Assembly: GCA_017561025.1 (NCBI GenBank)
Contig: JAFZDU010000074.1
Span: 7,603-71,602 of the forward strand
Length of the DNA stretch: 64,000 nucleotides
From: Bacteroidales bacterium
Lineage (GTDB): Bacteria > Bacteroidota > Bacteroidia > Bacteroidales > F082
Reading direction: 5' to 3'
A program made the position numbers and the translations under genes. Of this stretch, positions 7,098-61,133 are shown piece after piece; within the stretch, counting starts at the first letter, position 1; each line of letters starts with the position of its first letter. The notes below the pieces were generated by a model. That model searched no databases. It was not told where the DNA came from and worked only from the letters and a program-made list of their open reading frames with translations.

Positions 7098-8273
7098 TCA
7101 GTTTTTGATAACTTTTTGAACTGCTGTTGCACCGTTGCTGTGTAATCTTAAGAAGTAAACACCAGCTTCGTATTCTTTCATGTCGATAGCTAAAGTGCCA
7201 CGTACTTCTGTAGCGAATAATTCTCTGCCGCAGATGTCTAAAACTTGAACGAAGTCAACTTCTTCTGATTCTACCATAACGTAGTCTGTTGTTGGGTTAG
7301 GATAGATTCTTGTGTTGACGCTGATGTTGTTAACGCTTGTTGTGTCGTCGTCATCATCATCGTCACCGTTGCCGATAACGTCATATAAGAATAAGTAGTC
7401 GATAACATAGATGAGACCTCCGTCAGCTGAGTTTTGGTCCATAGCCCAGTATTCATATGATTCGATCATATTGTGCATTTCTGGGAGTTGTGGGAAATCT
7501 TGTTCTGGGTTAGGGTAGAAGAAGATGTTTTCTGCTAATTCTTTGTCGTTGTATTTGAAAACTCTCTTTTCTTGAGCAACGCCAGCAGAACTTAATGTTT
7601 GAGCTACTGTACAGTTACCAACTTCGTCATATTCTTGAACGAGGTTTGATTGTAAAACCCAACCTCCGTCGTAAGAGAAATAAAGAGTTTCTGTGAGGTT
7701 GCCGTTTTCGTTGTAGTAGAATTCTGTTAAAGCGCTATCTTCATAAATGCCAGTGAATGGGTTGAGTTGAATTAATTCAGCTTCCATTAAACCAGCATTG
7801 TTGTAGCTGTAAGTTGCTTTTTCGTACATGATGCCACAGAAGTCGAGTTCTCTTAATGTTAATTGACCTTCTTCGTTGTATGTGTAGTAATATGTACCAC
7901 CGATTTGTGGACCCCAGCCATCGTGGAAGTCGTTGTAGTTAGTACGTGTAGCTCTTAATCCCATTTCGTTGTATGTGTAGTCGCACCAGCAAACTTTAAG
8001 CCATTCGCCATCGAGGAGTTGGTATGTTACTAAAGAAGCGATTTGGCCAGCTTCGTTGTAAACGAGTGAGTCGATGCATTCTACTGTTGGTTGTGAGAGC
8101 ATGTCGATTTCGTGAGCAGCTCTGATGTCTGTACCTAATACGTCTGAATAACCATAGTTGATTGTTTCGAAACCGTCTTCTGACATGAATGATGCGATAC
8201 GGAATTTGTAGTTGTCTTGTGCAAACATTGGCAATGTGGCGACAACTAACAACATAAGTAAAAATTTTCTCAT
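7098..8273 (-). CDS. Paralog of 5758-6930 (T9SS-sorted YD-like repeat protein)
   Basis: Colinear with the neighbouring ORF over its full length. NGDDDDDDD linker. IYPNPTTDYVMVES...GVYFLRLHSNG C-terminal domain. Confidence 0.8.
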   Translation of the reverse strand: MRKFLLMLLVVATLPMFAQDNYKFRIASFMSEDGFETINYGYSDVLGTDIRAAHEIDMLSQPTVECIDSLVYNEAGQIASLVTYQLLDGEWLKVCWCDYTYNEMGLRATRTNYNDFHDGWGPQIGGTYYYTYNEEGQLTLRELDFCGIMYEKATYSYNNAGLMEAELIQLNPFTGIYEDSALTEFYYNENGNLTETLYFSYDGGWVLQSNLVQEYDEVGNCTVAQTLSSAGVAQEKRVFKYNDKELAENIFFYPNPEQDFPQLPEMHNMIESYEYWAMDQNSADGGLIYVIDYLFLYDVIGNGDDDDDDDTTSVNNISVNTRIYPNPTTDYVMVESEEVDFVQVLDICGRELFATEVRGTLAIDMKEYEAGVYFLRLHSNGATAVQKVIKN

Positions 8274-12789: not shown

Positions 12790-12816
12790 GTTCAGGAATT
12801 CAGGAGTTCAGGAGTT
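12790..12816. repeat. Octamer word run GTTCAGGA ATTCAGGA GTTCAGGA
   Basis: Directly follows the hydC terminator. Confidence 0.8.
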
Positions 12817-31780: not shown

Positions 31781-31799
31781 TAAGAGATTTTTATAAAAA

Positions 31800-31830
31800 C
31801 TCAGAATCTCAAAATCTCAGAATCTCAGAA
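31800..31830. repeat. Octamer word run CTCAGAAT CTCAAAAT CTCAGAAT CTCAGAA
   Basis: The last unit is the 5' arm of the terminator at 31823-31852. Confidence 0.8.
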
Positions 31831-31852
31831 ATGGGGTTCTGAGATTTTTTTT
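31823..31852 (+). terminator. Intrinsic terminator after 28031-31780
   Basis: TCTCAGAA/TTCTGAGA perfect 8-bp stem followed by T8. The 5' arm is the last unit of the word run at 31800-31830. Confidence 0.75.
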
Positions 31853-32013: not shown

Positions 32014-33073
32014 AAACAAGGTTCACTTCCGGTTTAATCTCAATGCCGAATTTCTCTTTCACGCTTTCCTGTATCTTCGTCATGAGGTCGAGAATCTCTT
32101 CAGGTCTGCCGCCGCCGTAATGAACCAGCACGAGCGCCTGCTTGTCCCAGACTCCCACATGATTCTCACGGTAGCCTTTCCATCCCGACTTGTCGATGAG
32201 CCATCCAGCAGGAATCTTCACTCCATTGTCGTTAGGATATGAAGGCACTTCAGGATATGTCTCTTTGATGCTTTGATATTTGTCGACATCGACGATAGGA
32301 TTCTGGAAGAAACTGCCGACGCTGCCAACGACACCTACTTCGGGCAATTTCTCCGCGCGTATCGTCTTGATCGCACTGGCGACGTCATATAGAGTAGGGG
32401 ATTCTATGTTTTTCTTGGAAAGATAATCTTTGATATTGCCATATTCCAACTTCAACTCAGCATTTCTCTTTAGTCTGAAGTCGATGGCGTAGATGAAATA
32501 TTTCTTGTTCTCTTCCTTCTTGAATATGCTGTTACGATAGGCGAACTCGCATTCTTCGTTGTCGAAGACGCGTTCCTCGCCGCTTTCAATGTCGATGGTA
32601 TAAACCTTTGTGATGCAGTCTTTCACCTCGCTGCCGTATGCGCCGATGTTCTGGACAGGAGCAGCACCCACGCTGCCAGGGATGTCGACGAGATTCTCTA
32701 ATCCGTAGAGATTGTTGCTAACAGTGAAATCAACGAAATCCTTCCAAACCTCACCCGACATGCACCTTACGGTAAGGAATTGAGGAATTGAGGAATTGAG
32801 GAATTGAGGAAATTCTTTATCCGTTGACTGTTGACCATCAACAAAAGTAATTCCTTTTAAATTGGAGTGTATTACTACTCCGTCAAAGTATTCTTCAGTG
32901 AAAAGAATGTTGCTTCCGCCTCCAAGGAAAAGTTTCTTAGATTCTTTAAATGTCTTGTCATCAATGAGTTTTTTTATGTCGTCCAATGAATTGACTTCGC
33001 AGAAATATTTTGCGATAACATTGAATCCCATTGTGTTTAAACCTTGAAGAGAATAATCTTTTTTCATCTGCAT
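32012..33073 (-). CDS. murB: UDP-N-acetylenolpyruvoylglucosamine reductase MurB
   Basis: LNTMGFNVIAKYF...LFLGGGSNILF...IPGSVGAAPVQNIGAYG...YRNSIFK. Start set to ATG 33073 (or 33067) because a TAATTTTG -7 box (33083-33090, minus) lies downstream of the ORF-track start at 33115. Contains an in-frame (AGGAATTG)x4 run. Confidence 0.88.
   Translation of the reverse strand: MQMKKDYSLQGLNTMGFNVIAKYFCEVNSLDDIKKLIDDKTFKESKKLFLGGGSNILFTEEYFDGVVIHSNLKGITFVDGQQSTDKEFPQFLNSSIPQFLTVRCMSGEVWKDFVDFTVSNNLYGLENLVDIPGSVGAAPVQNIGAYGSEVKDCITKVYTIDIESGEERVFDNEECEFAYRNSIFKKEENKKYFIYAIDFRLKRNAELKLEYGNIKDYLSKKNIESPTLYDVASAIKTIRAEKLPEVGVVGSVGSFFQNPIVDVDKYQSIKETYPEVPSYPNDNGVKIPAGWLIDKSGWKGYRENHVGVWDKQALVLVHYGGGRPEEILDLMTKIQESVKEKFGIEIKPEVNLV
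32775..32811 (-). repeat. Perfect (AGGAATTG)x4 + AGGAA octamer array inside murB
   Basis: Four exact 8-nt units, translated on the minus strand as PQFLNSSIPQFL. Confidence 0.95.
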
Positions 33074-35385: not shown

Positions 35386-35419
35386 GCATTATGCATTGTG
35401 AATTATGAATTATGAAATT
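35386..35419. repeat. Word run GCATTATG CATTGTG AATTATG AATTATG AAATT containing the methyltransferase start codon
   Basis: ATG 35412 is part of the last unit. Confidence 0.8.
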
Positions 35420-36992
35420 AAACAAGGTCTCAACTAAAAGTGCTGCCGAGCAACTGAATGTCTCTGTTGTAAGTATTCATAACTGGATTAAGGAAGGTAT
35501 CCTGAAAACCACCGACAATCGCATAACTCAGGAATCTCTCGAAGAGTTTAAGAGAGAGTATCTCAATAATAACAAACTTTCAGCTCGCGCGAACAAGCAA
35601 TATAAAGAGTCGCACAATCATAAGTCGTTGACAGAAGAGATAAAGAAAGATCTGAAGTCTTCTATGTCGGGCGACGAACTTTCTACAAAATACGAGTCTT
35701 CATTATCAGATTCATATAAAAATAAAGAAGGAATTTATTACACGCCTCAATATATAGTTGAGGATATGTTAAAATCTATTGACATTACGGAAGACAAAAT
35801 CTTCTTGGATCCTTGTTGTGGTTCGGGTAACTTCATCATAGAGGCTATAAGAAAAGGTGTCTCTCCAGAGAATGTCTATGGCTTTGATACTGATGAGAAT
35901 GCTGTCGCAATAACAAAGAAACGCATTAAAGAAATAAGCGGTTACGAAAGCAAAAATATCATCTGTGGAGACTTCTTAAACCAACAGCCAACAATCAACG
36001 GTCAACAGTTCGATTATATTTTTACAAATCCGCCTTGGGGAAAGAAAATCAATAAGGTGGATAAAATCAGATATTCTTCTTTATATAATTCAGGAAATAG
36101 CACCGACACATCGGCATTGTTTTACTTTGCCTGTTTGAATGTGTTAAAAAAAGATGGCAAGATTGGAATGTTATTACCTGATTCATTCTTTAACATAAGT
36201 TCGTTTGAAAACGCTCGTAAGTCGTTGATGACATTACAGATAAATCGTTTCGTCGATTATGGCAATGCATTCAAAGGACTGATGACCAAGGCGATGGCAT
36301 TTGTAGCTACAAATGGCGAATGGCAAAAGTCTGATGACAAAAGCTTTATAGAATGCGTGATTTATAATGTTAATAAACATTTACGTTCGCAGGAGAGTTT
36401 TGGTGATATACCTAAATGTATCTTTAATTTTCATATTGAAGAAAGTGAAAGCGATATAATACGTCGTGTATTTTCTGTGCCGCATATCAGGTTGAAAGAC
36501 AATGCGAAGTGGGGACTAGGTGTCATTACGGGAAACAACGAGAAAATCTGTAGGAAAGAGAAAGCCGTTGGTTGTGTTCCAATATATAGAGGTAAGGATA
36601 TTATGAAGAATGCCTTGGCAGAACCATCATTGTTTATAGATGAAAATCTAGAAGGATGTCGTCAGGTCGCAGACATGGAGTTGTATAAAGCTTCGGAGAA
36701 AGTGATATATCGTTTTATCTCTAATAAGATAGTCTGTTTTTATGATACAGAACAGCGATATATTTTAAACAGTGCAAACCTTTTTGTCTTGAATGAAGAT
36801 TTTCCAATATCATATTCGCAATTGGTTGATCTTTTGAATTCCGATTTCATGAACTGGCTTTTCAGAAGTATCTTCAATACGCACAAAATACTACGCGGCG
36901 ACTTGGAGTCATTGCCTATCTTTCACGAGTATTTTAAGAAATACGAAACCTTTTCTGAAGAAACTTTGAAGATGTATCTCTCTATCTTGTAG
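35412..36992 (+). CDS. Stand-alone gamma-class N6-adenine DNA methyltransferase (TaqI/Eco57I-like) with N-terminal HTH
   Basis: Motif I LDPCCGSGNFI precedes motif IV FTNPPWGKK. TaqI_C-like C-terminal half (IYRGKDIMKN). N-terminal LNVSVVSIHNWIKEGIL helix-turn-helix. No endonuclease gene on either side. Confidence 0.75.
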   Translation: MKLNKVSTKSAAEQLNVSVVSIHNWIKEGILKTTDNRITQESLEEFKREYLNNNKLSARANKQYKESHNHKSLTEEIKKDLKSSMSGDELSTKYESSLSDSYKNKEGIYYTPQYIVEDMLKSIDITEDKIFLDPCCGSGNFIIEAIRKGVSPENVYGFDTDENAVAITKKRIKEISGYESKNIICGDFLNQQPTINGQQFDYIFTNPPWGKKINKVDKIRYSSLYNSGNSTDTSALFYFACLNVLKKDGKIGMLLPDSFFNISSFENARKSLMTLQINRFVDYGNAFKGLMTKAMAFVATNGEWQKSDDKSFIECVIYNVNKHLRSQESFGDIPKCIFNFHIEESESDIIRRVFSVPHIRLKDNAKWGLGVITGNNEKICRKEKAVGCVPIYRGKDIMKNALAEPSLFIDENLEGCRQVADMELYKASEKVIYRFISNKIVCFYDTEQRYILNSANLFVLNEDFPISYSQLVDLLNSDFMNWLFRSIFNTHKILRGDLESLPIFHEYFKKYETFSEETLKMYLSIL

Positions 36993-37686
36993 TCTTGTAG
37001 TCTTGTTGACTTGTAGTCTTATCTATAACAGTTCCTTCATCGCATTTGATGATTCTTGATGGATATTTCAAGATGAGGTTATAGTTGTGTGTCGCCATGA
37101 AGATTGTTCTGCCTTTTGTGCAGATGTCGCGAAGCAGATCCATGATGTCGTTGGTGGTTTCAGGGTCGAGGTTGCCGGTAGGCTCGTCGGCCAAGATGAG
37201 AGCCGGGTCGTTGAGTAGCGCTCTTGCTATGGCGATGCTCTGCTGCTCGCCGCCCGACAACTGATGAGGCATAGATTTACGTTTGTTTGGAAGTCCCACT
37301 TGTTCCAGCACCTCGTCTATCCTTTTTGACATGGCAGACTTGTCTTTCCATCCAGTAGCGTCTAGCACGAAATAAAGATTGTCTTCTACGTTTCTGTCAT
37401 AAAGAAGCTGGAAGTCTTGAAACACTATGCCTATCTTTCTTCTGAGCATCGGGATGTCGCGTTTCTTTATCGTGCGGAGATTGTAGTCGGCGATGTTGAT
37501 ATCACCTTCTTTGGCAGGCAGGTCTGCATATAATGTCTTGAGAAGAGATGACTTGCCACTTCCTGTTCTTCCTATTAGATATACGAATTCGCCCTCTTCA
37601 ATTTCGAAGTTGACATCTTTCAACACGCAGTTATTGTGCTGAAATATGGAGGCATTCTTTAATGATATGACGCTTTTTGAATTCAT
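36982..37686 (-). CDS. ftsE: Cell-division ABC ATPase FtsE-like
   Basis: Walker A GRTGSGKSSLL, signature LSGGEQQ and Walker B LILADEPTGNLD. The last ~13 codons (DKTTSQQDYKTTR) are encoded by an octamer repeat run. Confidence 0.8.
   Translation of the reverse strand: MNSKSVISLKNASIFQHNNCVLKDVNFEIEEGEFVYLIGRTGSGKSSLLKTLYADLPAKEGDINIADYNLRTIKKRDIPMLRRKIGIVFQDFQLLYDRNVEDNLYFVLDATGWKDKSAMSKRIDEVLEQVGLPNKRKSMPHQLSGGEQQSIAIARALLNDPALILADEPTGNLDPETTNDIMDLLRDICTKGRTIFMATHNYNLILKYPSRIIKCDEGTVIDKTTSQQDYKTTR
36985..37021. repeat. Octamer word run TCTTGTAG x2, TCTTGTTG, ACTTGTAG, TCTTA
   Basis: Contains the stop codons of both convergent genes (methyltransferase TAG 36990-36992, ftsE TAG 36982-36984 on the minus strand). 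Confidence 0.9.
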
Positions 37687-37712
37687 AATTTACAATTCAT
37701 AATTCATAATGC
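37681..37712. repeat. Word run of ATTCATAA-type units around the ftsE start codon
   Basis: Reverse complement of the GAATTATG family seen at 35386 and 52857. Confidence 0.75.
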
Positions 37713-37726
37713 AAATATATAAAAAA

Positions 37727-37756
37727 GGCTAAAGGCGAAAGACAAAAGTCTAAAGG
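37727..37756. repeat. Word run GGCTAAAG GCGAAAGA CAAAAGTCTAAAGG
   Basis: xxCTAAAG family. Confidence 0.75.
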
Positions 37757-37772
37757 AAAAAAATCAAATTTA

Positions 37773-37829
37773 AGACGCATCAACGACATATTGTCTATTT
37801 TAATTGTGTCGTGTGACACGTCTCTACAA
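37773..37829 (-). repeat. AGACG...CGTCT-CTACAA hairpin element H1
   Basis: AGACGCATCAACGAC-20 nt-GTCGTGTGACACGTCT + CTACAA. Both plus-strand mismatches become G-U pairs on the minus strand. Confidence 0.75.
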
Positions 37830-37843
37830 ATTCCTAATTACTA

Positions 37844-37896
37844 AGACGCTTCAATGTTTGTTTATTTATGTAGGAATCATTGAAACGTCTCTACAA
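37844..37896 (-). repeat. Hairpin element H2
   Basis: AGACGCTTCAATG-21 nt-CATTGAAACGTCT + CTACAA. Confidence 0.85.
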
Positions 37897-37914
37897 ATTG
37901 CTGATTCCTAATTA

Positions 37915-38766
37915 TCACCAGCTTCCTCCAGCGCCGCCGCCACCGAAGCTGCCGCCGCCGAATCCGCTGAATCCTCCGCCGCCGAAACCACCAGATCCGC
38001 CTGAGAAATTGTTCCAATTGTTGTGATGATGATGATGTCGATTGCTGCTGTTGTTGAGTACGCTCAACCAGAACAATGTCCTCCAGAATGATGAGTCGTC
38101 TTTTCTGGATGAGATAGTGGTGCCGACTTTATTCGCTAATTTGATATATAAAATCATTGCTGCCATTCCTATTAAGATGAATATCAATGCAGCTAGTTCT
38201 GAGTTTTCTTCTGTGGATTTGTCTGATGAGAAACCGCCGGAGGCGAGCTTTATTATTGAGTCGATGGCATTGTTGACACCGCCGTAATAGTCGTTGTATT
38301 TGAATGCTGGTATCATCTGGTTCTCGATGATACGTTTTGCCAATGCGTCGGGAACATATTGTTCGAGGCCGTATCCGACGCTGATGAACACCTCACCTTT
38401 AGTTTCATTCTTTGGTTTTACTAAGATAACGATGCCGTTGTTTTCTTTTGTTCCTACGCCCCATTTCTCGCCGAGTTGATATGCGAAATCCGCTGCCGTA
38501 GTGCCTTGTAAGTCGTTGACGAATACCACGGCGATTTGTGTCGACGTAGTGTCGTTGTAGTTTCTGAGTTTATATTCAAGACTGTTAACCTGAGATGCTG
38601 TCAGAGTGTTAGTGAAATCGTTGACAAGTCGAGGAGGTGACGGACGACTAGGAATCAGCTGAGCATGGCATATAAAAACCATGAATAATAATAAAAATAA
38701 TGTGGCGAACTTTTTCTGTCCACTAATCCACACGAAATTGTCACTGATATTTTTGTTATTTGTCAT
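37915..38766 (-). CDS. TPM domain membrane protein (YgcG-like) with Gly-rich tail
   Basis: Signal/TM, then a TPM-type core (VNDFTNTLT...QIAVVFVNDLQG...NGIVILV...VFISVGYGLE), a TM segment, then HHHHH...GGSGGFGGGGFSGFGGGSFGGGGAGGSW. Confidence 0.75.
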   Translation of the reverse strand: MTNNKNISDNFVWISGQKKFATLFLLLFMVFICHAQLIPSRPSPPRLVNDFTNTLTASQVNSLEYKLRNYNDTTSTQIAVVFVNDLQGTTAADFAYQLGEKWGVGTKENNGIVILVKPKNETKGEVFISVGYGLEQYVPDALAKRIIENQMIPAFKYNDYYGGVNNAIDSIIKLASGGFSSDKSTEENSELAALIFILIGMAAMILYIKLANKVGTTISSRKDDSSFWRTLFWLSVLNNSSNRHHHHHNNWNNFSGGSGGFGGGGFSGFGGGSFGGGGAGGSW

Positions 38767-38795: not shown

Positions 38796-38853
38796 AGACG
38801 CTTCAATTACGTATTGTTCATTTTTATGGTGTAATTTGAAACGTCTTTACCAA
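38796..38853 (-). repeat. Hairpin element H3
   Basis: AGACGCTTCAATTAC...GTAATTTGAAACGTCT + TTACCAA. Confidence 0.8.
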
Positions 38854-38870
38854 TCATTCCTAATTATAAA

Positions 38871-38896
38871 GTCGCACGTCCGTGCGCCTCTACGCG
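38871..38896 (-). repeat. Mini hairpin followed by a TCTAC tail
   Basis: GTCGCAC-GTCC-GTGCGCC then TCTACGCG. Possibly a degenerate member of the H family. Confidence 0.4.
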
Positions 38897-38905
38897 AAAT
38901 TTTTT

Positions 38906-38943
38906 AATTCCTCAAATCCTCAATTCCTTAAATCCTCAGATTC
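38906..38943. repeat. Word run abutting the stop of 38943-39377
   Basis: Minus strand GAATCTGAGGATTTAAGGAATTGAGGATTTGAGGAATT, with stop triplets spaced 8 nt apart that cover all three frames. Confidence 0.85.
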
Positions 38944-39377
38944 TAACTAAAAGAAATCTCATCACTAAGTTCATTGACGTCATCGCTTTGATAAGGGAAG
39001 TAAGTCTTGAGTTTCTCGCCGCATTTCAATATTCCAGCGATGAGTCCGTCGGCGAATCTGTTCTCTTTGAACTTGGTTGTCATCTCGTCTTTGATGTCGT
39101 TCCAGAAGTCGTGTTCCACCTTTTTGTTGATGCCTTCGTCGCCTATGATGGCGAATTTATGGTCTTTTACGGCGAGGTAGAACAAGATGCCGTTGCGCGC
39201 GGCAGTACGATCCATCTTTAAATCGTAAAACACTTCTGCCGCGCGCTCCAGAGTCTCTTCTTTACAATGATTCTCAATATGCACTCTGATCTCGCCGGAG
39301 GTGTTGAGTTCCGCTTCCTTGATGGCAGCGACAATGTCGTGCTGCTCTTCCTTCGAAAAGAATGTTCTTGATGTCAT
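38943..39377 (-). CDS. TPM domain protein (cytoplasmic/short form)
   Basis: 144 aa with FSKEEQHDIVAAIKEAELNTSGEIRVHIE...FAIIGDEGI, as in TLP18.3/Psb32/MOLO-1-type domains. Confidence 0.7.
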   Translation of the reverse strand: MTSRTFFSKEEQHDIVAAIKEAELNTSGEIRVHIENHCKEETLERAAEVFYDLKMDRTAARNGILFYLAVKDHKFAIIGDEGINKKVEHDFWNDIKDEMTTKFKENRFADGLIAGILKCGEKLKTYFPYQSDDVNELSDEISFS

Positions 39378-40073: not shown

Positions 40074-40099
40074 ATAGTTCAAAGTTCAGTGTTCATAGT

Positions 40100-42001
40100 T
40101 CAAAGTTCACCAAAACTTCTCTTAACAAACTCATTCAAATCTTTACCTTTCAATAAGTTCTTTGAAAGGCGTGCTAAGTCGTATAATTGTTTGATTGTGT
40201 TCTTCTGTGCTTCTTCGTCTTTGTCGGCGAGACCTGCAACGACAGGGTTGTTGACGTTGAGCATGAGGGTGTAGCTGTCTGGCATTGTGCCCCACATCTG
40301 CATTCCGCCGCCCATGGCGCTCATCTCTTTCATACGGCGCATGAACTCGTTTTGTATTATTTCAACAGGAGCGTCGTCTTCGCCTAAGTTGCTGAATTCA
40401 ACGTGGTATGTGACTTTATCGATGATGTTGTCAAATGCCTTCTTGATGTTTTCTTTTTGTTCGTCGTTGAGTTTTGACTCTTTGCTTTCGTCTTCTTTCT
40501 CAATGAGTTTGTCGATAGAAGCAGAGTCGACGCGAGCGAATGAGCAGTCGCCGTATTTTTGTTCTAATGTGCTGATAAAGTGTGAGTCGAGGATGCCGTC
40601 TAACATAAGGACGCTGTAGCCTTTGCTCTTTGCGTTTTCGATGTTGCTGTATTGCTCGTCAGCGTTAGTCGCATAGAGATAAACGAGTCTGTTGTCCTTG
40701 TTCTTCTGGTTTTCTTCGATATGCTTCTTGTATTCTTCTAATGTATAGTAGATGCCGTCGGTGTCTTTTACGAGCATGAATTTCTCTGCTCTCTCGAAGA
40801 ACTTAGGATCTGCTATCATGCCGTATTCGATGAAGACGCTGATGTCGTCCCATTTCTTTTCGTATTCAGCGCGGTCTTTCTTAAAGAGTTCTTCAAGTTT
40901 CTCAGCGACTTTCTTGGTGATATAACCAGAAATCTTCTTGACGTTCTGGTCGTTTTGCAAGAATGAACGGCTTACGTTCAATGGGATGTCTGGTGAGTCG
41001 ATGACGCCGTGGAGCATTGTCAAGAACTCTGGCAAGATGCCGTCGACAGAGTCTGTAACGAAAACTTCGTTGCAATAGAGTTGTATCTTGTTGCGTTGAA
41101 ATTCGTATCTGTTCTTGATTTTAGGGAAGTATAAGATACCTGTCAAGTTGAAAGGATAATCGACGTTGAGGTGGATGTGGAACAAGGGTGTCTCGAAGTT
41201 CATCGGATACAAGACATGATAGAAGTCGTCGTATTCCTTGTCTTCTATTGATGATGGTGACTTCTTCCAGAGTGGAGCGACGTCGTTGATGATCCAAGGT
41301 TTCTCTACTGACTGTGTCTTTGGTTTGCCGTCTTCGTCATTCTCGCCTTCGATGATTTCTTCGACATTCTTTGTTCCGAATTGGATTGGTACTGACAAGA
41401 ACTTACAGTATTTGTTCAGCAACTCGCGGATCTTGCTTTCTTCGAGGAAGTCGGCGCAGTCGTCGGAGATATAAAGAATGACATCTGTTCCGCGTGAGCC
41501 TTTTGGTATCTCGTTCATTGTGTATTCAGGACTGCCGTCGCATTCCCACATAACGCCTTTTTCTTCTTCTGTCTGTCTGAATGACTTGCTGATGAGAGCC
41601 ACTTTGTTTGACACCATGAATGATGAGTAGAATCCTAAACCGAAGTGACCTATGATGTTAGCTGCTTCTGCCTCGCTTTGTGTCTTGAATTTCTCCACGA
41701 ATTCTGTAGCGCCAGAGAAGGCGATTTGGTTGATGTATTTGTCGACTTCAGCGCTTGTCATGCCGATGCCGTTGTCGCGGATGGTGAGAGTCTTTTTCTG
41801 CTTGTCGATCTCGACTCTGATGGTGAGGTCGCCGAGTTCGCCTTTGAATTCGCCTGCTGAAGCGAGAGTCTTGAGTTTGTTGGTCGCATCGACAGCGTTG
41901 CTTACGATCTCACGTAAGAATATTTCGTTTTCTGAATATAAGAACTTCTTGATTACAGGAAAAATGTTTTCCGTTTTTACACCTATTGAACCTGTTTGCA
42001 T
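40100..42001 (-). CDS. htpG: Molecular chaperone HtpG (Hsp90)
   Basis: 633 aa with IFLREIVSNAVDA (GHKL ATPase N box) and IGHFGLGFYSSFMV. Confidence 0.95.
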   Translation of the reverse strand: MQTGSIGVKTENIFPVIKKFLYSENEIFLREIVSNAVDATNKLKTLASAGEFKGELGDLTIRVEIDKQKKTLTIRDNGIGMTSAEVDKYINQIAFSGATEFVEKFKTQSEAEAANIIGHFGLGFYSSFMVSNKVALISKSFRQTEEEKGVMWECDGSPEYTMNEIPKGSRGTDVILYISDDCADFLEESKIRELLNKYCKFLSVPIQFGTKNVEEIIEGENDEDGKPKTQSVEKPWIINDVAPLWKKSPSSIEDKEYDDFYHVLYPMNFETPLFHIHLNVDYPFNLTGILYFPKIKNRYEFQRNKIQLYCNEVFVTDSVDGILPEFLTMLHGVIDSPDIPLNVSRSFLQNDQNVKKISGYITKKVAEKLEELFKKDRAEYEKKWDDISVFIEYGMIADPKFFERAEKFMLVKDTDGIYYTLEEYKKHIEENQKNKDNRLVYLYATNADEQYSNIENAKSKGYSVLMLDGILDSHFISTLEQKYGDCSFARVDSASIDKLIEKEDESKESKLNDEQKENIKKAFDNIIDKVTYHVEFSNLGEDDAPVEIIQNEFMRRMKEMSAMGGGMQMWGTMPDSYTLMLNVNNPVVAGLADKDEEAQKNTIKQLYDLARLSKNLLKGKDLNEFVKRSFGEL

Positions 42002-42196: not shown

Positions 42197-42344
42197 CTTT
42201 AGTCATTTGTCTTTTGACTTTTGTCATTAGTCAATTTCTTTGGGCGTTCCGGCTTTGCCGTCGGGCTTTCCGCTATATCTTTGCTTGCTCCGTTATCACT
42301 CCGCTCGCAAAGGATGCCGCTCCAATCCCTAACGCATTGGGGCG
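42197..42344 (+). repeat. Left arm of a ~150-bp inverted repeat (word run + GC-rich element)
   Basis: The blocks TTTGGGCGTTCCGGCT, CCGTCGGGCTTTCCGCT.TATCTTTGCT.GCTCC and GCTCGCAAAGGATGCCGCTCCAATCCCTAACGCA recur reverse-complemented at 44692-44836. Confidence 0.9.
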
Positions 42345-42461
42345 ATGAGTAACAAACTGCGAGCCTTGAGCAAGAGAACTGAAGCTGTTAAAAAAAAATT
42401 CTTAAACTTATAATTTCAATTGATAATTTTTCTATATTCGTAGCATTAAAAATTTACAATT

Positions 42462-43106
42462 ATGAAGAAAATCTATTTAATTATGACGCTTTGTATGATT
42501 ATGGTGTCATGTAAGCCAGATGGTGGTAATGGAAGACATGAAGATCATGAATATGTTGACCTCGGTTTAAGCGTAAAATGGGCTACATGTAATGTTGGAG
42601 CGAAATCGCCAGAAGGCTATGGACTATATTTTGCTTGGGGTGAGACAACTACAAAATCAGAGTACAATTCATCTAACTGCCCTATCTACGGACTTAGTGT
42701 GTCGGAGTTGCAATCACAAGAATATATAGATAGCGTGGGCAATCTTATGCCACAATATGATGCCGCTACAGCCAACTGGGGCGGTGATTGGAGAATGCCG
42801 ACAAGAACAGAACAAGAAGAATTATTGGATAACTGCACATGGAGTTGGGTGTCGCAAAACGGAGTTAATGGTTATAAGGTGACATCTAAGGTAAACGGTA
42901 ATAGTATTTATTTGCCTGCTGCTGGGTTTCGTGACGGGTCATTGCTTTTCAGCGATGGATATATAGGCCAATACTGGAGTTCTTCGCCTCTTGAAACCAA
43001 TCATTATGGTGCTTTTATGTTGTATTTTTATAGTGATGTTCAGCGTATGGATGGAAGTTATCGCGTTCTTGGTCAAAGCGTTCGTCCTGTCCTAGAAGAA
43101 AAGTAG
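42462..43106 (+). CDS. Small lipoprotein with DUF1566/Fib_succ_major-type domain
   Basis: Lipobox MVSC. YVDLGLSVKWATCNVGA...FAWGE...YDAATANWGGDWRMPTRTEQEELL...YWSSSP...GQSVRPV. Paralogous to the C-terminus of 2381-4003. Confidence 0.7.
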   Translation: MKKIYLIMTLCMIMVSCKPDGGNGRHEDHEYVDLGLSVKWATCNVGAKSPEGYGLYFAWGETTTKSEYNSSNCPIYGLSVSELQSQEYIDSVGNLMPQYDAATANWGGDWRMPTRTEQEELLDNCTWSWVSQNGVNGYKVTSKVNGNSIYLPAAGFRDGSLLFSDGYIGQYWSSSPLETNHYGAFMLYFYSDVQRMDGSYRVLGQSVRPVLEEK

Positions 43107-43154
43107 AGACATATCAGAATTCGTTTGAAAATAAGAATTTTGTTGCGTCTTTTG
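43107..43154 (+). terminator. Imperfect AGAC...GCGTCT hairpin directly after the stop of 42462-43106
   Basis: 16 paired positions (12 Watson-Crick, 2 U-G, 2 mismatches) followed by TTTT. Confidence 0.4.
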
Positions 43155-43433: not shown

Positions 43434-44687
43434 ATGCAAAATTTCATAGATAAACTACAATCATCATTAAAAGAAGGTTCATTTGTAAAACTGACGTTGT
43501 CAAAACCAGTAGGGACGCGATTAATCGCATACGTAGGGACGCGATTAATCGCGTCCGTACAAGGACAATCAATAGAAGAATTACGTAACGTCTACGTGAA
43601 ACCTATCATCCTCAAAAACGAGAAGATGTATTCTTTCACATATCGTTACGAGAGAAGAGACGAGACCAAGAACTATGACGCTGAGCAGACTCTTGAGGTA
43701 ATCACGGAATTGCTTTCTGGAATATTTCTCAATGCTTCGTTGTTCACTCTTACTGAAGACGTCACTCTTCTCGTGAGCAAGAAAGGCAAGGCTACTGTCA
43801 TGTGCAAGGCTGTCAAGGAACAGAGAGAGCAGAACGTGCAGCACGACAAAGTCAAGAATCGTCTGATAAATACGGATAATCCTTGGTGGTTTAAGTTAGG
43901 TCTGACAACACGCGAAGGCAAGGTCACTGCTGACATGCAGCATAAGTTCAAGCAGATTTGCAAATATGTCGAGATTGTTGACGGCGTGATGAAGAACGTG
44001 AAGTTCGATGGCAAGATCCGCATCGCCGACATGGGAGCAGGGAAAGGTTATCTCACTTTTGCCTTATATGAATATCTCACACAGAAATGCAAATACGACA
44101 TCATGATGGAAGGCGTGGAGATACGTCCTGACTTAGTCGTTAAAATCAACGAGATAATAAAAGAATCAAATTTGAAAGACTTTCGTTTTGTGGAAAGTAG
44201 TATAGAATCCTTCGGATGTGGATGTCAACAGACAATGCCAAAGGTTCAAAGTTCAGAGTTCAAAGTTCAAAGTCAATTAGATGTCCTCATCGCTCTTCAT
44301 GCATGCAACACTGCCACCGACGATGCTATTATAAAAGGTATAAAGTCTGGGGCTAAGTTAATCATCTGCGCTCCTTGTTGTCACAAGCAGATCCGTCAGG
44401 AGATGGAGAAGTCGAAAGTCGTTGATCCTATCACACGTTACGGCATCTTCCTGGAACGTCAGGCGGTGATGATTACTGATGCGATACGGGCCTTGATAAT
44501 GGAATATTACGGTTACAAGACACAGGTGATGGAGTTCATCGAGATGGAACATACTCCTAAAAACATATTGCTCGTTGGAAGAAAGAGCGATGCACCGGTC
44601 GATAAAGAATCCATTTTGAAGCAGATAGAAGAATTGAAGAAACAATACGGAATAGAGAGACATTATCTGGAGAGAATCTTTGATTAA
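43434..44687 (+). CDS. Class I SAM-dependent methyltransferase (Methyltransf_32-like)
   Basis: SAM motif IADMGAGKGYLTFALY and LIALHACNTATDDAI. Carries two in-frame repeat insertions (43509-43556 and 44243-44274). Confidence 0.7.
   Translation: MQNFIDKLQSSLKEGSFVKLTLSKPVGTRLIAYVGTRLIASVQGQSIEELRNVYVKPIILKNEKMYSFTYRYERRDETKNYDAEQTLEVITELLSGIFLNASLFTLTEDVTLLVSKKGKATVMCKAVKEQREQNVQHDKVKNRLINTDNPWWFKLGLTTREGKVTADMQHKFKQICKYVEIVDGVMKNVKFDGKIRIADMGAGKGYLTFALYEYLTQKCKYDIMMEGVEIRPDLVVKINEIIKESNLKDFRFVESSIESFGCGCQQTMPKVQSSEFKVQSQLDVLIALHACNTATDDAIIKGIKSGAKLIICAPCCHKQIRQEMEKSKVVDPITRYGIFLERQAVMITDAIRALIMEYYGYKTQVMEFIEMEHTPKNILLVGRKSDAPVDKESILKQIEELKKQYGIERHYLERIFD
43509..43556 (+). repeat. In-frame 24-nt tandem duplication carrying a 20-nt perfect palindrome, inside the methyltransferase CDS
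   Basis: GTAGGGACGCGATTAATCGCATAC / GTAGGGACGCGATTAATCGCGTCC. The palindrome GGACGCGATTAATCGCGTCC spans 43537-43556. Encodes VGTRLIAY/VGTRLIAS. Confidence 0.9.
44243..44274 (+). repeat. In-frame GTTCAAAG word run inside the methyltransferase CDS
   Basis: GGTTCAAA GTTCAGA GTTCAAA GTTCAAAGTC. The 17-mer at 44258-44274 is the reverse complement of intergenic 61027-61043. Confidence 0.85.
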
Positions 44688-44691
44688 CTTT

Positions 44692-44836
44692 CCCCTTTGC
44701 GTTAGGGATTGGAGCGGCATCCTTTGCGAGCGGAGCGAGCAAAGATAGAGCGGAAAGCCCGACGGCGGAGCTGAAGGCGTAGCCGGAACGCCCAAAAAAA
44801 GACTAAAGACTAATGACAAAAGCCGAAAGACTAAAG
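44692..44836 (-). repeat. Right arm of the ~150-bp inverted repeat
   Basis: See 42197-44344. Starts 5 nt after the methyltransferase stop. Followed by further word units at 44845-44883. Confidence 0.9.
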
Positions 44837-44984
44837 AATTTTTAGATTAAAGTTTGAAATGTAAAGAGGTTAAAGTCCAAGGCAAAAAATAAATTTAAAA
44901 AACTCTTTCCATATAAATAAAAATGTTTATCTTCGTGGACTTGAAAAAAACACAAAGTATTTAACGTTAAAAAAAATAAATATC

Positions 44985-52804: not shown

Positions 52805-52857
52805 AGACGCATCAATGTGTGTTTATTTTAATAGGAATCATTGATACGTCTCTACAA
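52805..52857 (-). repeat. Hairpin element H4
   Basis: AGACGCATCAATG-21 nt-CATTGATACGTCT + CTACAA. About 85% identical to H2, including the loop, with one compensatory pair change. Confidence 0.85.
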
Positions 52858-52882
52858 TTATGCATTATGAATTATGAATTAC
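52857..52882. repeat. Word run ATTATGC ATTATGA ATTATGA ATTAC overlapping the pyrF stop
   Basis: GAATTATG family. On the pyrF strand the order is stop, run, then H4. Confidence 0.8.
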
Positions 52883-53688
52883 AAAAACGCTGCCATTTGT
52901 TCTTGTAATTTCTTTGCTTCATCAGCTGCTTTTTCTGCGAAGTCTTGTTCTTTTGAAGCGTAGATGATGCCTCTTGATGAGTTGACCAACAAACCGCATT
53001 CTTTGTTGAGACCGAATTTAGCTACTGCTGCCAAGTCGCCGCCTTGTGCTCCAACGCCAGGAACCAAGAAGAAGTGATTTGGCAACATCTGTCTGATTTC
53101 GCCTAATTCTTCAGGGTGTGTTGCGCCAACAACGTACATCATCTTGCTGTCGTCAGCCCATGTGCTTGACTTAGCGAGAACTTCTTTGTAAAGTTCACGA
53201 CCTTCAATGTTGAGGTATTGGAAATCTTTTGAACCTTTGTTTGAAGTGAGTGCTAACAAGATAACCCATTTGTCTTCGAAGCCTAAGAATGGTTCTACTG
53301 AATCTAACCCCATGTAAGGAGCTACTGTGATAGCGTCGCTGCTCATTGATTCGAAGAATGCTCTTGCGTAGTTAGCTGATGTGTTGCCGATATCGCCTCT
53401 CTTAGCGTCAGCGATGACGAAAATCTCAGGATAGTTAGCTTTGATGTATTTTATTGTCTTGTCCAAGCTTTCCCAGCCTTTAGCGCCGTATACTTCGTAG
53501 AAAGCAGTGTTAGGTTTGTAAGCTACTGTATATTGAGCTGTTGCATCGATGATTTGCTTGTTGAATTCGAAGACTGGATCTTCACATTCTAAAAGATGTT
53601 GAGGAATCTTGTTGATGTCGGTGTCTAAACCAACGCAAAGGAATGATTTCTTTGCAAATATCTGTTCTACTAATTGTTGTTTGTTCAT
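52879..53688 (-). CDS. pyrF: Orotidine 5'-phosphate decarboxylase
   Basis: 269 aa with LCVGLDTD and [13 protein letters not shown] (type 2 PyrF). Confidence 0.9.
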
Positions 53689-53699
53689 GGTATTATATT

Positions 53700-53800
53700 T
53701 TAGTTTAAAGTTTATGGTTTAAAGTGGTTTTAAAGTTGATAGTTTAAAGTTATTAAGTTTATAAAATTCAACCTTAAACCTTAAGCTTTAAGCCTTAAAC
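53700..53800. repeat. ~100-nt word palindrome between prfA and pyrF
   Basis: The left half has four (G)GTTTAAAG-type units. The right half has CCTTAAAC/CTTTAAGC units, which are their reverse complements. Confidence 0.8.
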
Positions 53801-58631: not shown

Positions 58632-58664
58632 AATGAGGAATTAGGAGTTAGGAATTAGGAATGA
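58632..58664. repeat. Word run AATGAGGAATTAGGAGTTAGGAATTAGGAATGA
   Basis: GAATTAGG family. Shares a 15-mer with the rimO insertion. Confidence 0.8.
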
Positions 58665-61026: not shown

Positions 61027-61064
61027 GACTTTGAACTTTGAACTGTTGTCTGTTGTCTGTTGTC
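61027..61064. repeat. Word runs (GACTTTGAA CTTTGAAC)(TGTTGTC x3)
   Basis: Distal to the secDF terminator. Confidence 0.85.
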
Positions 61065-61096
61065 AAAAAAAAGAGCCCCTGAAAATCAGGAGCTCT
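61065..61096 (-). terminator. Intrinsic terminator after secDF
   Basis: Minus strand AGAGCTCCTGA-TTT-TCAGGGGCTCT (one U-G) followed by T8. Confidence 0.75.
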
Positions 61097-61101
61097 CTCA
61101 A

Positions 61102-61133
61102 CTTTAGCCATTAGCCATTAGCCATTAGCCAAT
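61102..61133. repeat. Octamer run (CCATTAGC)x3.5 abutting the secDF stop
   Basis: On the secDF strand TAA is followed by TTGGCTAATGGCTAATGGCTAATGGCTAAAG. Confidence 0.9.

Follow-up and report, generated by a model that had tools for sequence, protein, structure and literature searches.

The 64,000-nucleotide stretch of contig JAFZDU010000074.1 analyzed here (positions 7,603 to 71,602, from a Bacteroidales bacterium; referred to below as the window) carries four intergenic hairpins, H1 to H4 (Table 1), which an initial annotation had read as RNA structures under selection in the sense transcript. Our analysis makes it very likely that these hairpins are repetitive extragenic palindromes (REPs) bearing a GTAG tag, and that their family is particular to a clade of uncultured Bacteroidales from animal guts. 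Members of the family consist of GTAG, an imperfect palindrome with the foot AGACG/CGTCT and an A-rich loop; they are extragenic, number about 10^2 per genome and are polymorphic for insertion. The initial annotation had left room for their being a known element and, in kind, that is what they are, i.e., GTAG-tagged REPs associated with a REP-associated tyrosine transposase (RAYT), although no Rfam family matches them.

The copies were most likely mobilized by the RAYT as hairpins of single-stranded DNA (ssDNA), and later retained as hairpins in 3′ untranslated regions (3′-UTRs). Selection on RNA structure would be at most a secondary layer on this mobile DNA element. What stood of the earlier proposal was a repeat family with compensatory changes in the stem and a bias toward the sense strand, whereas its argument from strand-specific G-U pairing did not prove to be general.

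A GTAG-tagged repeat family and its transposase

A pattern scan of GTDB genomes returned at least 117 blocks (8 kb each), and the matches listed came nearly all from metagenome-assembled genomes (MAGs) of uncultured animal-gut Bacteroidales, including 'Candidatus Limimorpha', 'Lentimicrobiaceae' SIG104-107, and RGIG and SGB bins from cattle, yak, buffalo and deer. We trained a hidden Markov model and a covariance model on 118 unique copies. This search of relatives, which had been proposed at the outset, recovered the family in 30 MAGs, with at least 187 copies in 106 blocks (854 kb) of these MAGs plus the window; 54 of the 187 lay outside the search pattern and were used as an independent set. 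Corrected for ascertainment, the density was 0.07-0.095 copies per kb, or about one per 10-14 kb (the window has 5 per 64 kb), which extrapolates to of the order of 200-280 copies per genome for a genome size of 2.5-3 Mb that was assumed, not measured.

In 153 of 181 near-full copies, pattern-independent copies included, the stem is immediately preceded by GTAG, and only 4 of the 187 copies fall inside open reading frames (ORFs). Identical copies within one genome share a common sequence from GTAG onward and have unrelated 5′ flanks; because they diverge only 5′ of GTAG, the tag marks the left boundary of the unit. The elements are AT-rich (GC about 0.3), and the sequence of the loop is conserved across species. 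With a unit length of 51-60 nt and a conserved loop of 16-21 nt, they fall outside the size and small loop of the classical REP definition (20-40 nt). No hairpin family was matched at the Rfam gathering threshold over the whole window, and a local E-value scan gave matches at chance level only. A general enrichment in the window of GTAG next to any hairpin was considered and rejected, the result for GTAG (32 of 377) being like that for control tetramers; beyond the hairpin family, only two minor GTAG types stand out there.

Clustering of all ORFs in the fetched blocks revealed a protein of 179-186 amino acids in four of them. Its sole NCBIfam match was NF047646 (REP_Tyr_transpos, E = 1e-13). 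In a PDB profile search the best match was 4er8, i.e., E. coli TnpA_REP (E = 1.2e-5), with IS200-type structures at 3e-3 or weaker, and when an AlphaFold model (pLDDT 79) was searched with Foldseek, 4er8_A came first (E = 4e-7, TM 0.53/0.58) and the IS608, ISDra2 and IS200 transposases ranked below it. Residues H81, H83, W144, Q145, Y165 and N169 do not vary among 48 aligned homologues, and in a set of 120 homologues, 115-120 have the HuH (P[ND]H[VIL]H), WQxRF and Y-x3-N motifs. The protein is a single-domain Y1 HUH transposase of the RAYT/TnpA_REP type, and is closer to TnpA_REP than to the TnpA of IS200/IS605. There are 1,864 homologues, some of them named 'REP element-mobilizing transposase RayT' by the Joint Genome Institute (JGI). 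Most lie on contigs shorter than 2 kb, as expected because the genes are embedded in repeats.

The fold is nevertheless shared with insertion sequences (ISs), and the hairpins might be the ends of an autonomous member of the IS200/IS605 family, or derivatives of one resembling miniature inverted-repeat or palindrome-associated transposable elements (MITEs or PATEs), with the Y1 protein an ordinary IS transposase. An IS200-like Y1 HUH fold, the TnpA proteins of ISDra2 and IS608 as the next structural matches, and a match to Y1_Tnp by one member would fit. We judge this extremely improbable, since the best matches in both sequence and structure are to TnpA_REP rather than TnpA_IS200, the tyrosine motif is the Y-x3-N of RAYTs and not the Y-x3-Q of the IS200 type (PMC6006769), there is no tnpB partner, the hairpins vastly outnumber the transposase genes, and those genes sit in REP arrays without distinct left- and right-end hairpins.

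In seven of the seven RAYT lineages examined (L060, L077, L087 and L114, together with P0019, P0035 and P0029, which were fetched with their contigs), copies or arrays of the family lie on both sides of the gene, with their GTAG ends toward it. The flanks are often arrays of head-to-head pairs that resemble bacterial interspersed mosaic elements (BIMEs), and a second REP type, with a long loop, is also part of them. The RAYT gene often takes its stop codon from the TAG of a GTAG.

Comparison of orthologous sites showed that copies come and go. The closest relative among the genomes compared was JAZOSK (amino acid identity 88% for ftsE and 98% for pyrF). Its TPM-to-ftsE spacer (L114) has conserved flanks and no REP where the window has H2 and H1, and the same spacer in L086 is likewise REP-free. 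H1 and H2 are therefore insertions, and, as the orthologous spacers are empty, the element is dispensable. JAZOSK also has a REP between prfA and pyrF (L074), where the window has none. H3, which lies between two TPM genes, stands where L114 has a RAYT gene with flanking REP arrays.

Stem pairing, orientation and competing explanations

Covariation was computed on a 118-sequence alignment, in which eight pairs are fixed by the search pattern and expansion of subfamilies inflates the counts. The main helix was 99.7% paired, and compensatory changes were found at seven pairs, i.e., four in the core helix and three in the extension of the long-stem copies. The helix contains 169 double-change cells, a number reached by none of 500 shuffles. 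The counts at three example pairs were GC 51, AU 41, UA 12 and GU 12; UA 91 and CG 25; and GC 84, UA 14, AU 10 and CG 6.

At stem position 6, read on the GTAG strand of 121 unique copies, the pair was T:G in 57, C:A in 57, T:A in 6, A:T in 1 and C:G in none, a distribution that runs against Watson-Crick pairing (Fisher p = 9e-28 vs independence). The mismatch is thus conserved as a mismatch, in two forms with wobble geometry. At position 7 the GTAG strand carries G·U in 12 copies and A·C in 2. Inversion of the loop was considered as the origin of the C:A type and rejected, as the orientation of the loop relative to GTAG is equal in both types. The initial annotation had observed that all plus-strand mismatches of the window copies (C-A at position 6 in H1-H4 and A-C at position 7 in H1) become G-U on the minus strand, and had argued from this for RNA. 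The observation holds for the four window copies and not for the family, where C:A accounts for 57 of the 121; because half of the copies carry C·A on the sense strand, the argument from G-U at position 6 fails for the family as a whole. Nor is strand-specific wobble proof of RNA, since a protein that reads one DNA strand predicts it too. In E. coli, mismatches in the REP stem are needed for the activity of TnpA_REP, which binds the REP strand and not the complementary iREP (PMC8266576).

On the paradigm of E. coli TnpA_REP and IS200/IS605, the GTAG strand would fold as ssDNA, and the RAYT would recognize the GTAG tag together with the hairpin, including the conserved non-Watson-Crick pyrimidine·purine pair at position 6, which may play the part of the obligatory bulge of E. 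coli REPs. Cleavage and rejoining of the strand by the RAYT would then spread the copies. To judge from position and orientation, copies would survive almost exclusively just past stop codons, where the mRNA has the sequence of the GTAG strand, and would be transcribed as 3′-UTR hairpins without a U-tract. Like documented REPs, such copies probably act as barriers to 3′-exonucleases and/or as partial, factor-dependent terminators. The suggestion in the initial annotation of a U-tract-independent terminator or RNA-stability element agrees with what is documented for REPs in E. coli (bioRxiv 10.64898/2026.03.23.713779), and a like action would be the most economical reading for the present family.

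The initial annotation had staked its reading on an orientation bias relative to genes, and the bias is present. Of the 123 pattern-selected copies, 106 have their GTAG strand in the sense orientation relative to the gene 5′ of them (p = 7e-17), as do 28 of 36 copies of the independent set outside the RAYT array (p = 1e-3). The median distance from the stop codon is about 20-26 nt. Against the background of all spacers from these blocks, copies are over-represented in convergent spacers (32% vs 15%) and under-represented in divergent ones (3% vs 13%; chi-square p = 7e-6 for the spacer distribution); GTAG REPs with a comparable distribution relative to genes have been described (PMC3733652). 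A tract of at least six T within the 8 nt after the stem was found in only 27 of 163 copies, in keeping with the earlier remark that no U-tract follows the hairpins, and they are therefore not canonical intrinsic terminators.

The family might instead be primarily an RNA element, i.e., a 3′-UTR hairpin selected in the sense transcript as a terminator, stability element or protein-binding site, with the RAYT association secondary. The strong sense bias with placement about 20 nt past stop codons, the loop sequence conserved across species, and the preference for G·U over A·C at position 7 of the GTAG strand would all be explained in this way. In addition, the form of the position-6 pair in co-directional spacers differs with orientation: sense copies are T:G in 47 and C:A in 21 of 68, whereas antisense copies are mostly C:A (10 of 13, with T:G in 3; Fisher p = 0.0036, six MAGs), and in 57 of 81 copies it is the G·U form that appears in the transcript. 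This split provides a modest signal for an RNA layer, and the fact that U·G and C·A(+) are isosteric in RNA also favors it. We nevertheless consider an RNA element quite unlikely. C·A is on the GTAG strand in half of the copies, orthologous spacers without the hairpin keep both the flanking genes and a downstream promoter-like box, and the inverted arrays around RAYT genes follow no 3′-UTR logic. The GTAG tag is a signature at the DNA level, with no matching Rfam family, and a wobble preference on one strand is predicted equally well by recognition of one DNA strand.

The orientation bias might also reflect the direction of replication rather than transcription, with insertion into the lagging-strand template as for IS608; Y1 transposases do work on ssDNA at replication forks (PMC6006769). 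However, the fifth copy in the window lies on the DNA strand opposite H1-H4, yet it too has the sense orientation relative to the gene upstream of it. In most bacteria, the orientation of genes and the direction of replication are correlated. Even if insertion followed replication without exception, though, the gene-strand bias of about 55-65% that we estimate for Bacteroidales could not produce the 82-83% of sense copies in co-directional spacers, making this model very unlikely.

An explanation that we regard as unlikely, though not negligibly so, is that of a directional REP. Here the RAYT would insert the hairpin into the exposed non-template strand at the 3′ ends of transcription units, or else the REP would have been domesticated as a U-tract-independent 3′-end or insulator module, the position-6 wobble and the conserved A-rich loop being read in RNA by a host factor. 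If true, this would explain the 83% sense bias in co-directional spacers, the head-to-tail order of copies and the surplus of G·U on the strand that is transcribed.

Returning to the identification as REPs mobilized by a RAYT, several observations weigh against it. The NF047646 score of the transposase, 51 bits, is below the equivalog cut-off of 80, and the Pfam threshold for Y1_Tnp was reached by only one of three proteins. A tblastn search of the 64 kb of the window and of the flanks (20 kb) of conspecific contigs found no RAYT, and the link to the transposase is therefore made by homology with related genomes; among the close RAYT homologues P0009, P0019, P0029 and P0035, no contig could be tied to the genome of the window. 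The T:G and C:A types are not cleanly split by RAYT clade (n = 7 lineages, 55-65% mutual identity). The conserved, A-rich loop of about 16-21 nt contrasts with loops of 2-5 nt in known REPs. Most copies are single, and outside the RAYT locus of L087 neighboring copies form 15 tandem vs 6 inverted pairs. In the families described, inverted dimers are dominant (PMC3733652), whereas here copies are single or head-to-tail and their sense bias is unusually strong: 82-83% of copies in co-directional spacers are sense (60 of 72-73), which is atypical for known REPs. Inverted pairs with a fixed spacer, the dominant form in REPINs (REP doublets forming hairpins), do not prevail, head-to-head pairs being found mainly beside RAYT genes.

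The window copies and neighboring features

All four hairpins described initially were recovered, at the coordinates given in Table 1, and all four have one polarity. Read on the minus strand, each consists of 5′-(T)TGTAG, AGACG-Y-N-TCA, an A-rich loop of about 20 nt, and TGA-N-R-CGTCT-3′, so that the conserved CTACAA is the reverse complement containing the 5′ GTAG tag, located right at the foot of the palindrome; in H3 the tag is degenerate, with GTAA in place of GTAG. The pattern AGACG-N25-55-CGTCT has six matches in the window against 1.37 expected, a number reached in none of 100 shuffles, and four of the six are H1-H4. As stated originally, all four copies lie downstream of minus-strand genes, i.e., TPM (37915-38766), TPM (38943-39377) and pyrF (52879-53688), and H4 is located 23 nt past the pyrF stop codon, between convergent genes. 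The likeness of H2 and H4, loop included, was correctly noted and is in fact closer than the figure of about 85% given for it (89%, 47 of 53), and the compensatory swap at stem position 7, T:A in H2 and A:T in H4, is indeed present.

The RNA folds of H1-H4 have energies of -15.0 to -20.4 kcal/mol on the minus strand vs -11.9 to -17.3 kcal/mol on the plus strand, with z-scores of -3.2 to -5.4 (-2.7 to -5.4 for RNA and DNA folds together), and in the covariance model the plus strand scores 32-45 bits below the minus strand. There is no T-run directly after the stem of any of the four, and none of them was called in a terminator scan. The GTAG of the fifth, decayed copy is the source of the TAG stop codon of ORF 42462-43106 (+); as ssDNA, this copy folds no better than shuffled sequence.

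Table 1. Copies of the hairpin family and adjacent features in the window
Feature	Coordinates	Strand	Description
REP copy H1	37773-37829 (unit 37773..37827)	minus	GTAG tag; long-stem subfamily; stem of 16-17 bp with 1-nt bulge and two G·U pairs; head-to-tail with H2; covariance model E = 2e-13
REP copy H2	37844-37896 (unit 37844..37894)	minus	GTAG tag 37894-37891; 13-bp stem, U·G at position 6; 21-nt A-rich loop; 20 nt past stop codon of 283-aa TPM gene; covariance model E = 1.8e-16
REP copy H3	38796-38853 (unit 38796..38850)	minus	Long-stem subfamily; covariance model E = 1e-11
REP copy H4	52805-52857 (unit 52805..52855)	minus	Covariance model E = 3.3e-18
Fifth copy, decayed	43103-43150	+	Covariance model E = 4.2e-5
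Word-run spacer (AATTAGGAAT...)	37895..37914	minus	Between TPM stop codon and H2; target-side context, outside the repeat unit
Word run AATTATG x3.7	52856..52881		Between pyrF stop codon and H4
Short GC-rich GTAG hairpin GTAGAGGCGCACGGACGTGCGAC	38870..38893	minus	Immediately 5′ of H3

At the site orthologous to that of H4, downstream of pyrF (SUWS01000020), L014 (7794-7856) and L057 (7764-7830) have a variant hairpin, the one true flipped-loop variant that was seen. Its upper stem and loop are inverted relative to GTAG, its position 6 is Watson-Crick T:A, and the word run that precedes it differs (ACAATTA vs AATTCAT), which indicates turnover at this conserved site. A further arrangement was seen in L073 (2471-2994), where five head-to-tail REP copies, each with a flank of about 60 nt, form an array with a period of about 112-120 nt.

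The loop or tail of the element was also considered as a Bacteroidetes TTTG/TAnnTTTG promoter, and rejected because the element itself contains no such sequence. A box resembling TAnnTTTG (TATATATTTG), preceded by a TTTG, lies ahead of ftsE, both in the window (37700-37730, minus, downstream of H1) and in L114 (2100-2125); because it is kept in this REP-free orthologue, we assign it to ftsE and not to the element. The box is consistent with what we take to be the consensus of a Bacteroidetes-type promoter for ftsE. A sigma-70 promoter scan gave matches that are uninformative for Bacteroidota.

The window also contains intergenic tandem repeats of short words ('word runs'), with a period of 7-8 and 4-5 units, built from many different words and numbering about 25 per 64-kb window. 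Examples are at 1376-1408, 12790-12816, 31795-31832, 32775-32811, 35388-35416, 36985-37020, 37680-37756, 38906-38943, 40076-40109, 44239-44273, 44798-44837, 53701-53800, 58632-58662 and 61043-61131, and the words include AATTAGG, AGGAATTG, TCTTGTAG, AATTCAT, AAAGGCT and AGTTCAA. Word runs occur likewise in about 30 related MAGs, and orthologous spacers carry different words even though the flanking genes are 94-98% identical at the protein level. Many of the words hold a stop codon, so that three units place a stop in every frame. A word akin to that of the H2 spacer (AATTAGGAAT...) recurs between H2 and H1 (37828-37843). Overall, a word run was found at the 5′ flank of 35 of 162 REP copies, vs the 3′ flank of 6 of 160. 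That the run might be part of the mobile unit was considered and rejected, since identical copies have different 5′ words and runs are present at orthologous sites that are REP-free; because of the latter, the REP family does not explain the word runs either. The single-word TAACTGA repeats (PMC4679880) are only a partial analogue.

Other short hairpins were noted. The one at 38870-38893 (GTAGAGGCGCACGGACGTGCGAC) is probably a second, short REP type; GTAGAGCCGCACGGCCGTGCGG, which is akin to it, follows a REP in L029, and the two are possibly a third REP type. At 43509-43559 (+), within the methyltransferase-like ORF 43434-44687, the palindrome GTAGGGACGCGATTAATCGCGTCC(GTAC) is duplicated in tandem and in frame (24 nt, 8 codons), which looks like a second, short 'double-foot' REP type inside a coding sequence, as reported for some REP families. 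The sole Rfam match in the window was a Flavo-1 RNA motif (RF01705) at 42255-42348 (minus), with 44 bits vs a gathering score of 42.

Comparison with known REP/RAYT systems

The family resembles the GTAG-REP/RAYT 'REPtrons' of other bacteria, i.e., REP/BIME of E. coli, REP/REPIN of Pseudomonas and SMAG of Stenotrophomonas (PMC2817692, PMC3733652, PMC8266576). Common to both are the 5′ GTAG at the foot of an imperfect palindrome, an extragenic copy number of about 10^2 or higher, a location in unidirectional and convergent spacers within about 20-30 nt of the 3′ end of an ORF, the occasional supply of a stop codon by GTAG, a conserved irregularity in the stem, and subfamilies that differ by complementary changes there. 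Another common feature, seen here in related genomes, is a RAYT gene with inverted REPs and BIME-like arrays on its flanks. Unlike the REPtrons, the present family is AT-rich, and the irregularity consists of one pair only, T·G or C·A.

In a 2013 survey GTAG REPs were found in Proteobacteria, Cyanobacteria, Chloroflexi and the Planctomycetes-Verrucomicrobia-Chlamydiae (PVC) group, but not in Bacteroidetes (PMC3733652). The present family is not catalogued in the literature searched, in which a keyword search for Bacteroidales RAYT/REP was noisy; a 2018 survey recorded the gene-flanking hairpins only. Our reading would extend GTAG-tagged REPs to the phylum where that survey found none, and would explain the conspicuous intergenic hairpins of a large group of uncultured gut Bacteroidales as REP/RAYT elements. 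The covariance model, together with the sequence rule, allows the copies, which break assemblies, to be masked and annotated. The position-6 mismatch, conserved as such, makes the family a ready-made resource for asking which features of a hairpin are read by its RAYT, and the strong sense bias makes the family a good system for telling insertion bias from RNA-level selection in REPs. For the scanning of genomes, the lesson is that a compensatory hairpin with G-U on one strand is not by itself evidence for an RNA gene, because ssDNA hairpins read by a protein look alike.

With respect to RNA, E. coli REPs without poly-U stabilize the upstream mRNA and cause partial Rho-dependent termination (bioRxiv 10.64898/2026.03.23.713779). 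As in E. coli REP325, the hairpins described here lack poly-U and are located between tandem or convergent genes. Unlike REP325, they are single hairpins rather than multi-REP arrays, and their function is predicted from position.

Another close published description is that of TnpA_REP subclasses 2.4 and 2.6 (Quentin et al. 2018; Bertels groups 4 and 5), which occur in Bacteroidetes and Cyanobacteria; their genes have on their flanks long, 'double-foot' or 'atypical' hairpins, of which further copies lie at other places in the genome (PMC6006769). Since that study admits 'long/atypical' REPs, the 51-60-nt units of the present family fit its class. The likeness of the transposases, judged by motifs alone, lies in a length of about 179-194 amino acids, NH[IVL]H (here NHVH), WQ and YIxNN, and the hosts are again Bacteroidetes. 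In place of the P of the published consensus, YIxNN is followed here by I or V. A further likeness is that the pattern scan also matched double-foot palindromes that share the foot (GTAGAGACG...CGTCTCTAC) in cyanobacteria, Mucilaginibacter and Bacteroidales UBA1756. In our data, perfect palindromes of this kind (GTAGAGACGTTTCATGAAACGTCTCTAC and relatives), often in tandem, share the foot of the hairpin family in distant phyla: they were seen in L018, L063, L101 (Phormidium CP143273), L075 (Floridaenema), L039, L069, L099 (Mucilaginibacter), L112 (Calditrichia) and L034 (Bacteroidales UBA1756), and in L034 the palindrome comes right after a fragment of a RAYT from the same protein family. This suggests an old relationship between the hairpin family and the double-foot REP families. 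The dispersed cognate REP family, its orientation bias and the mismatch rule at position 6 go beyond the published description of these subclasses.

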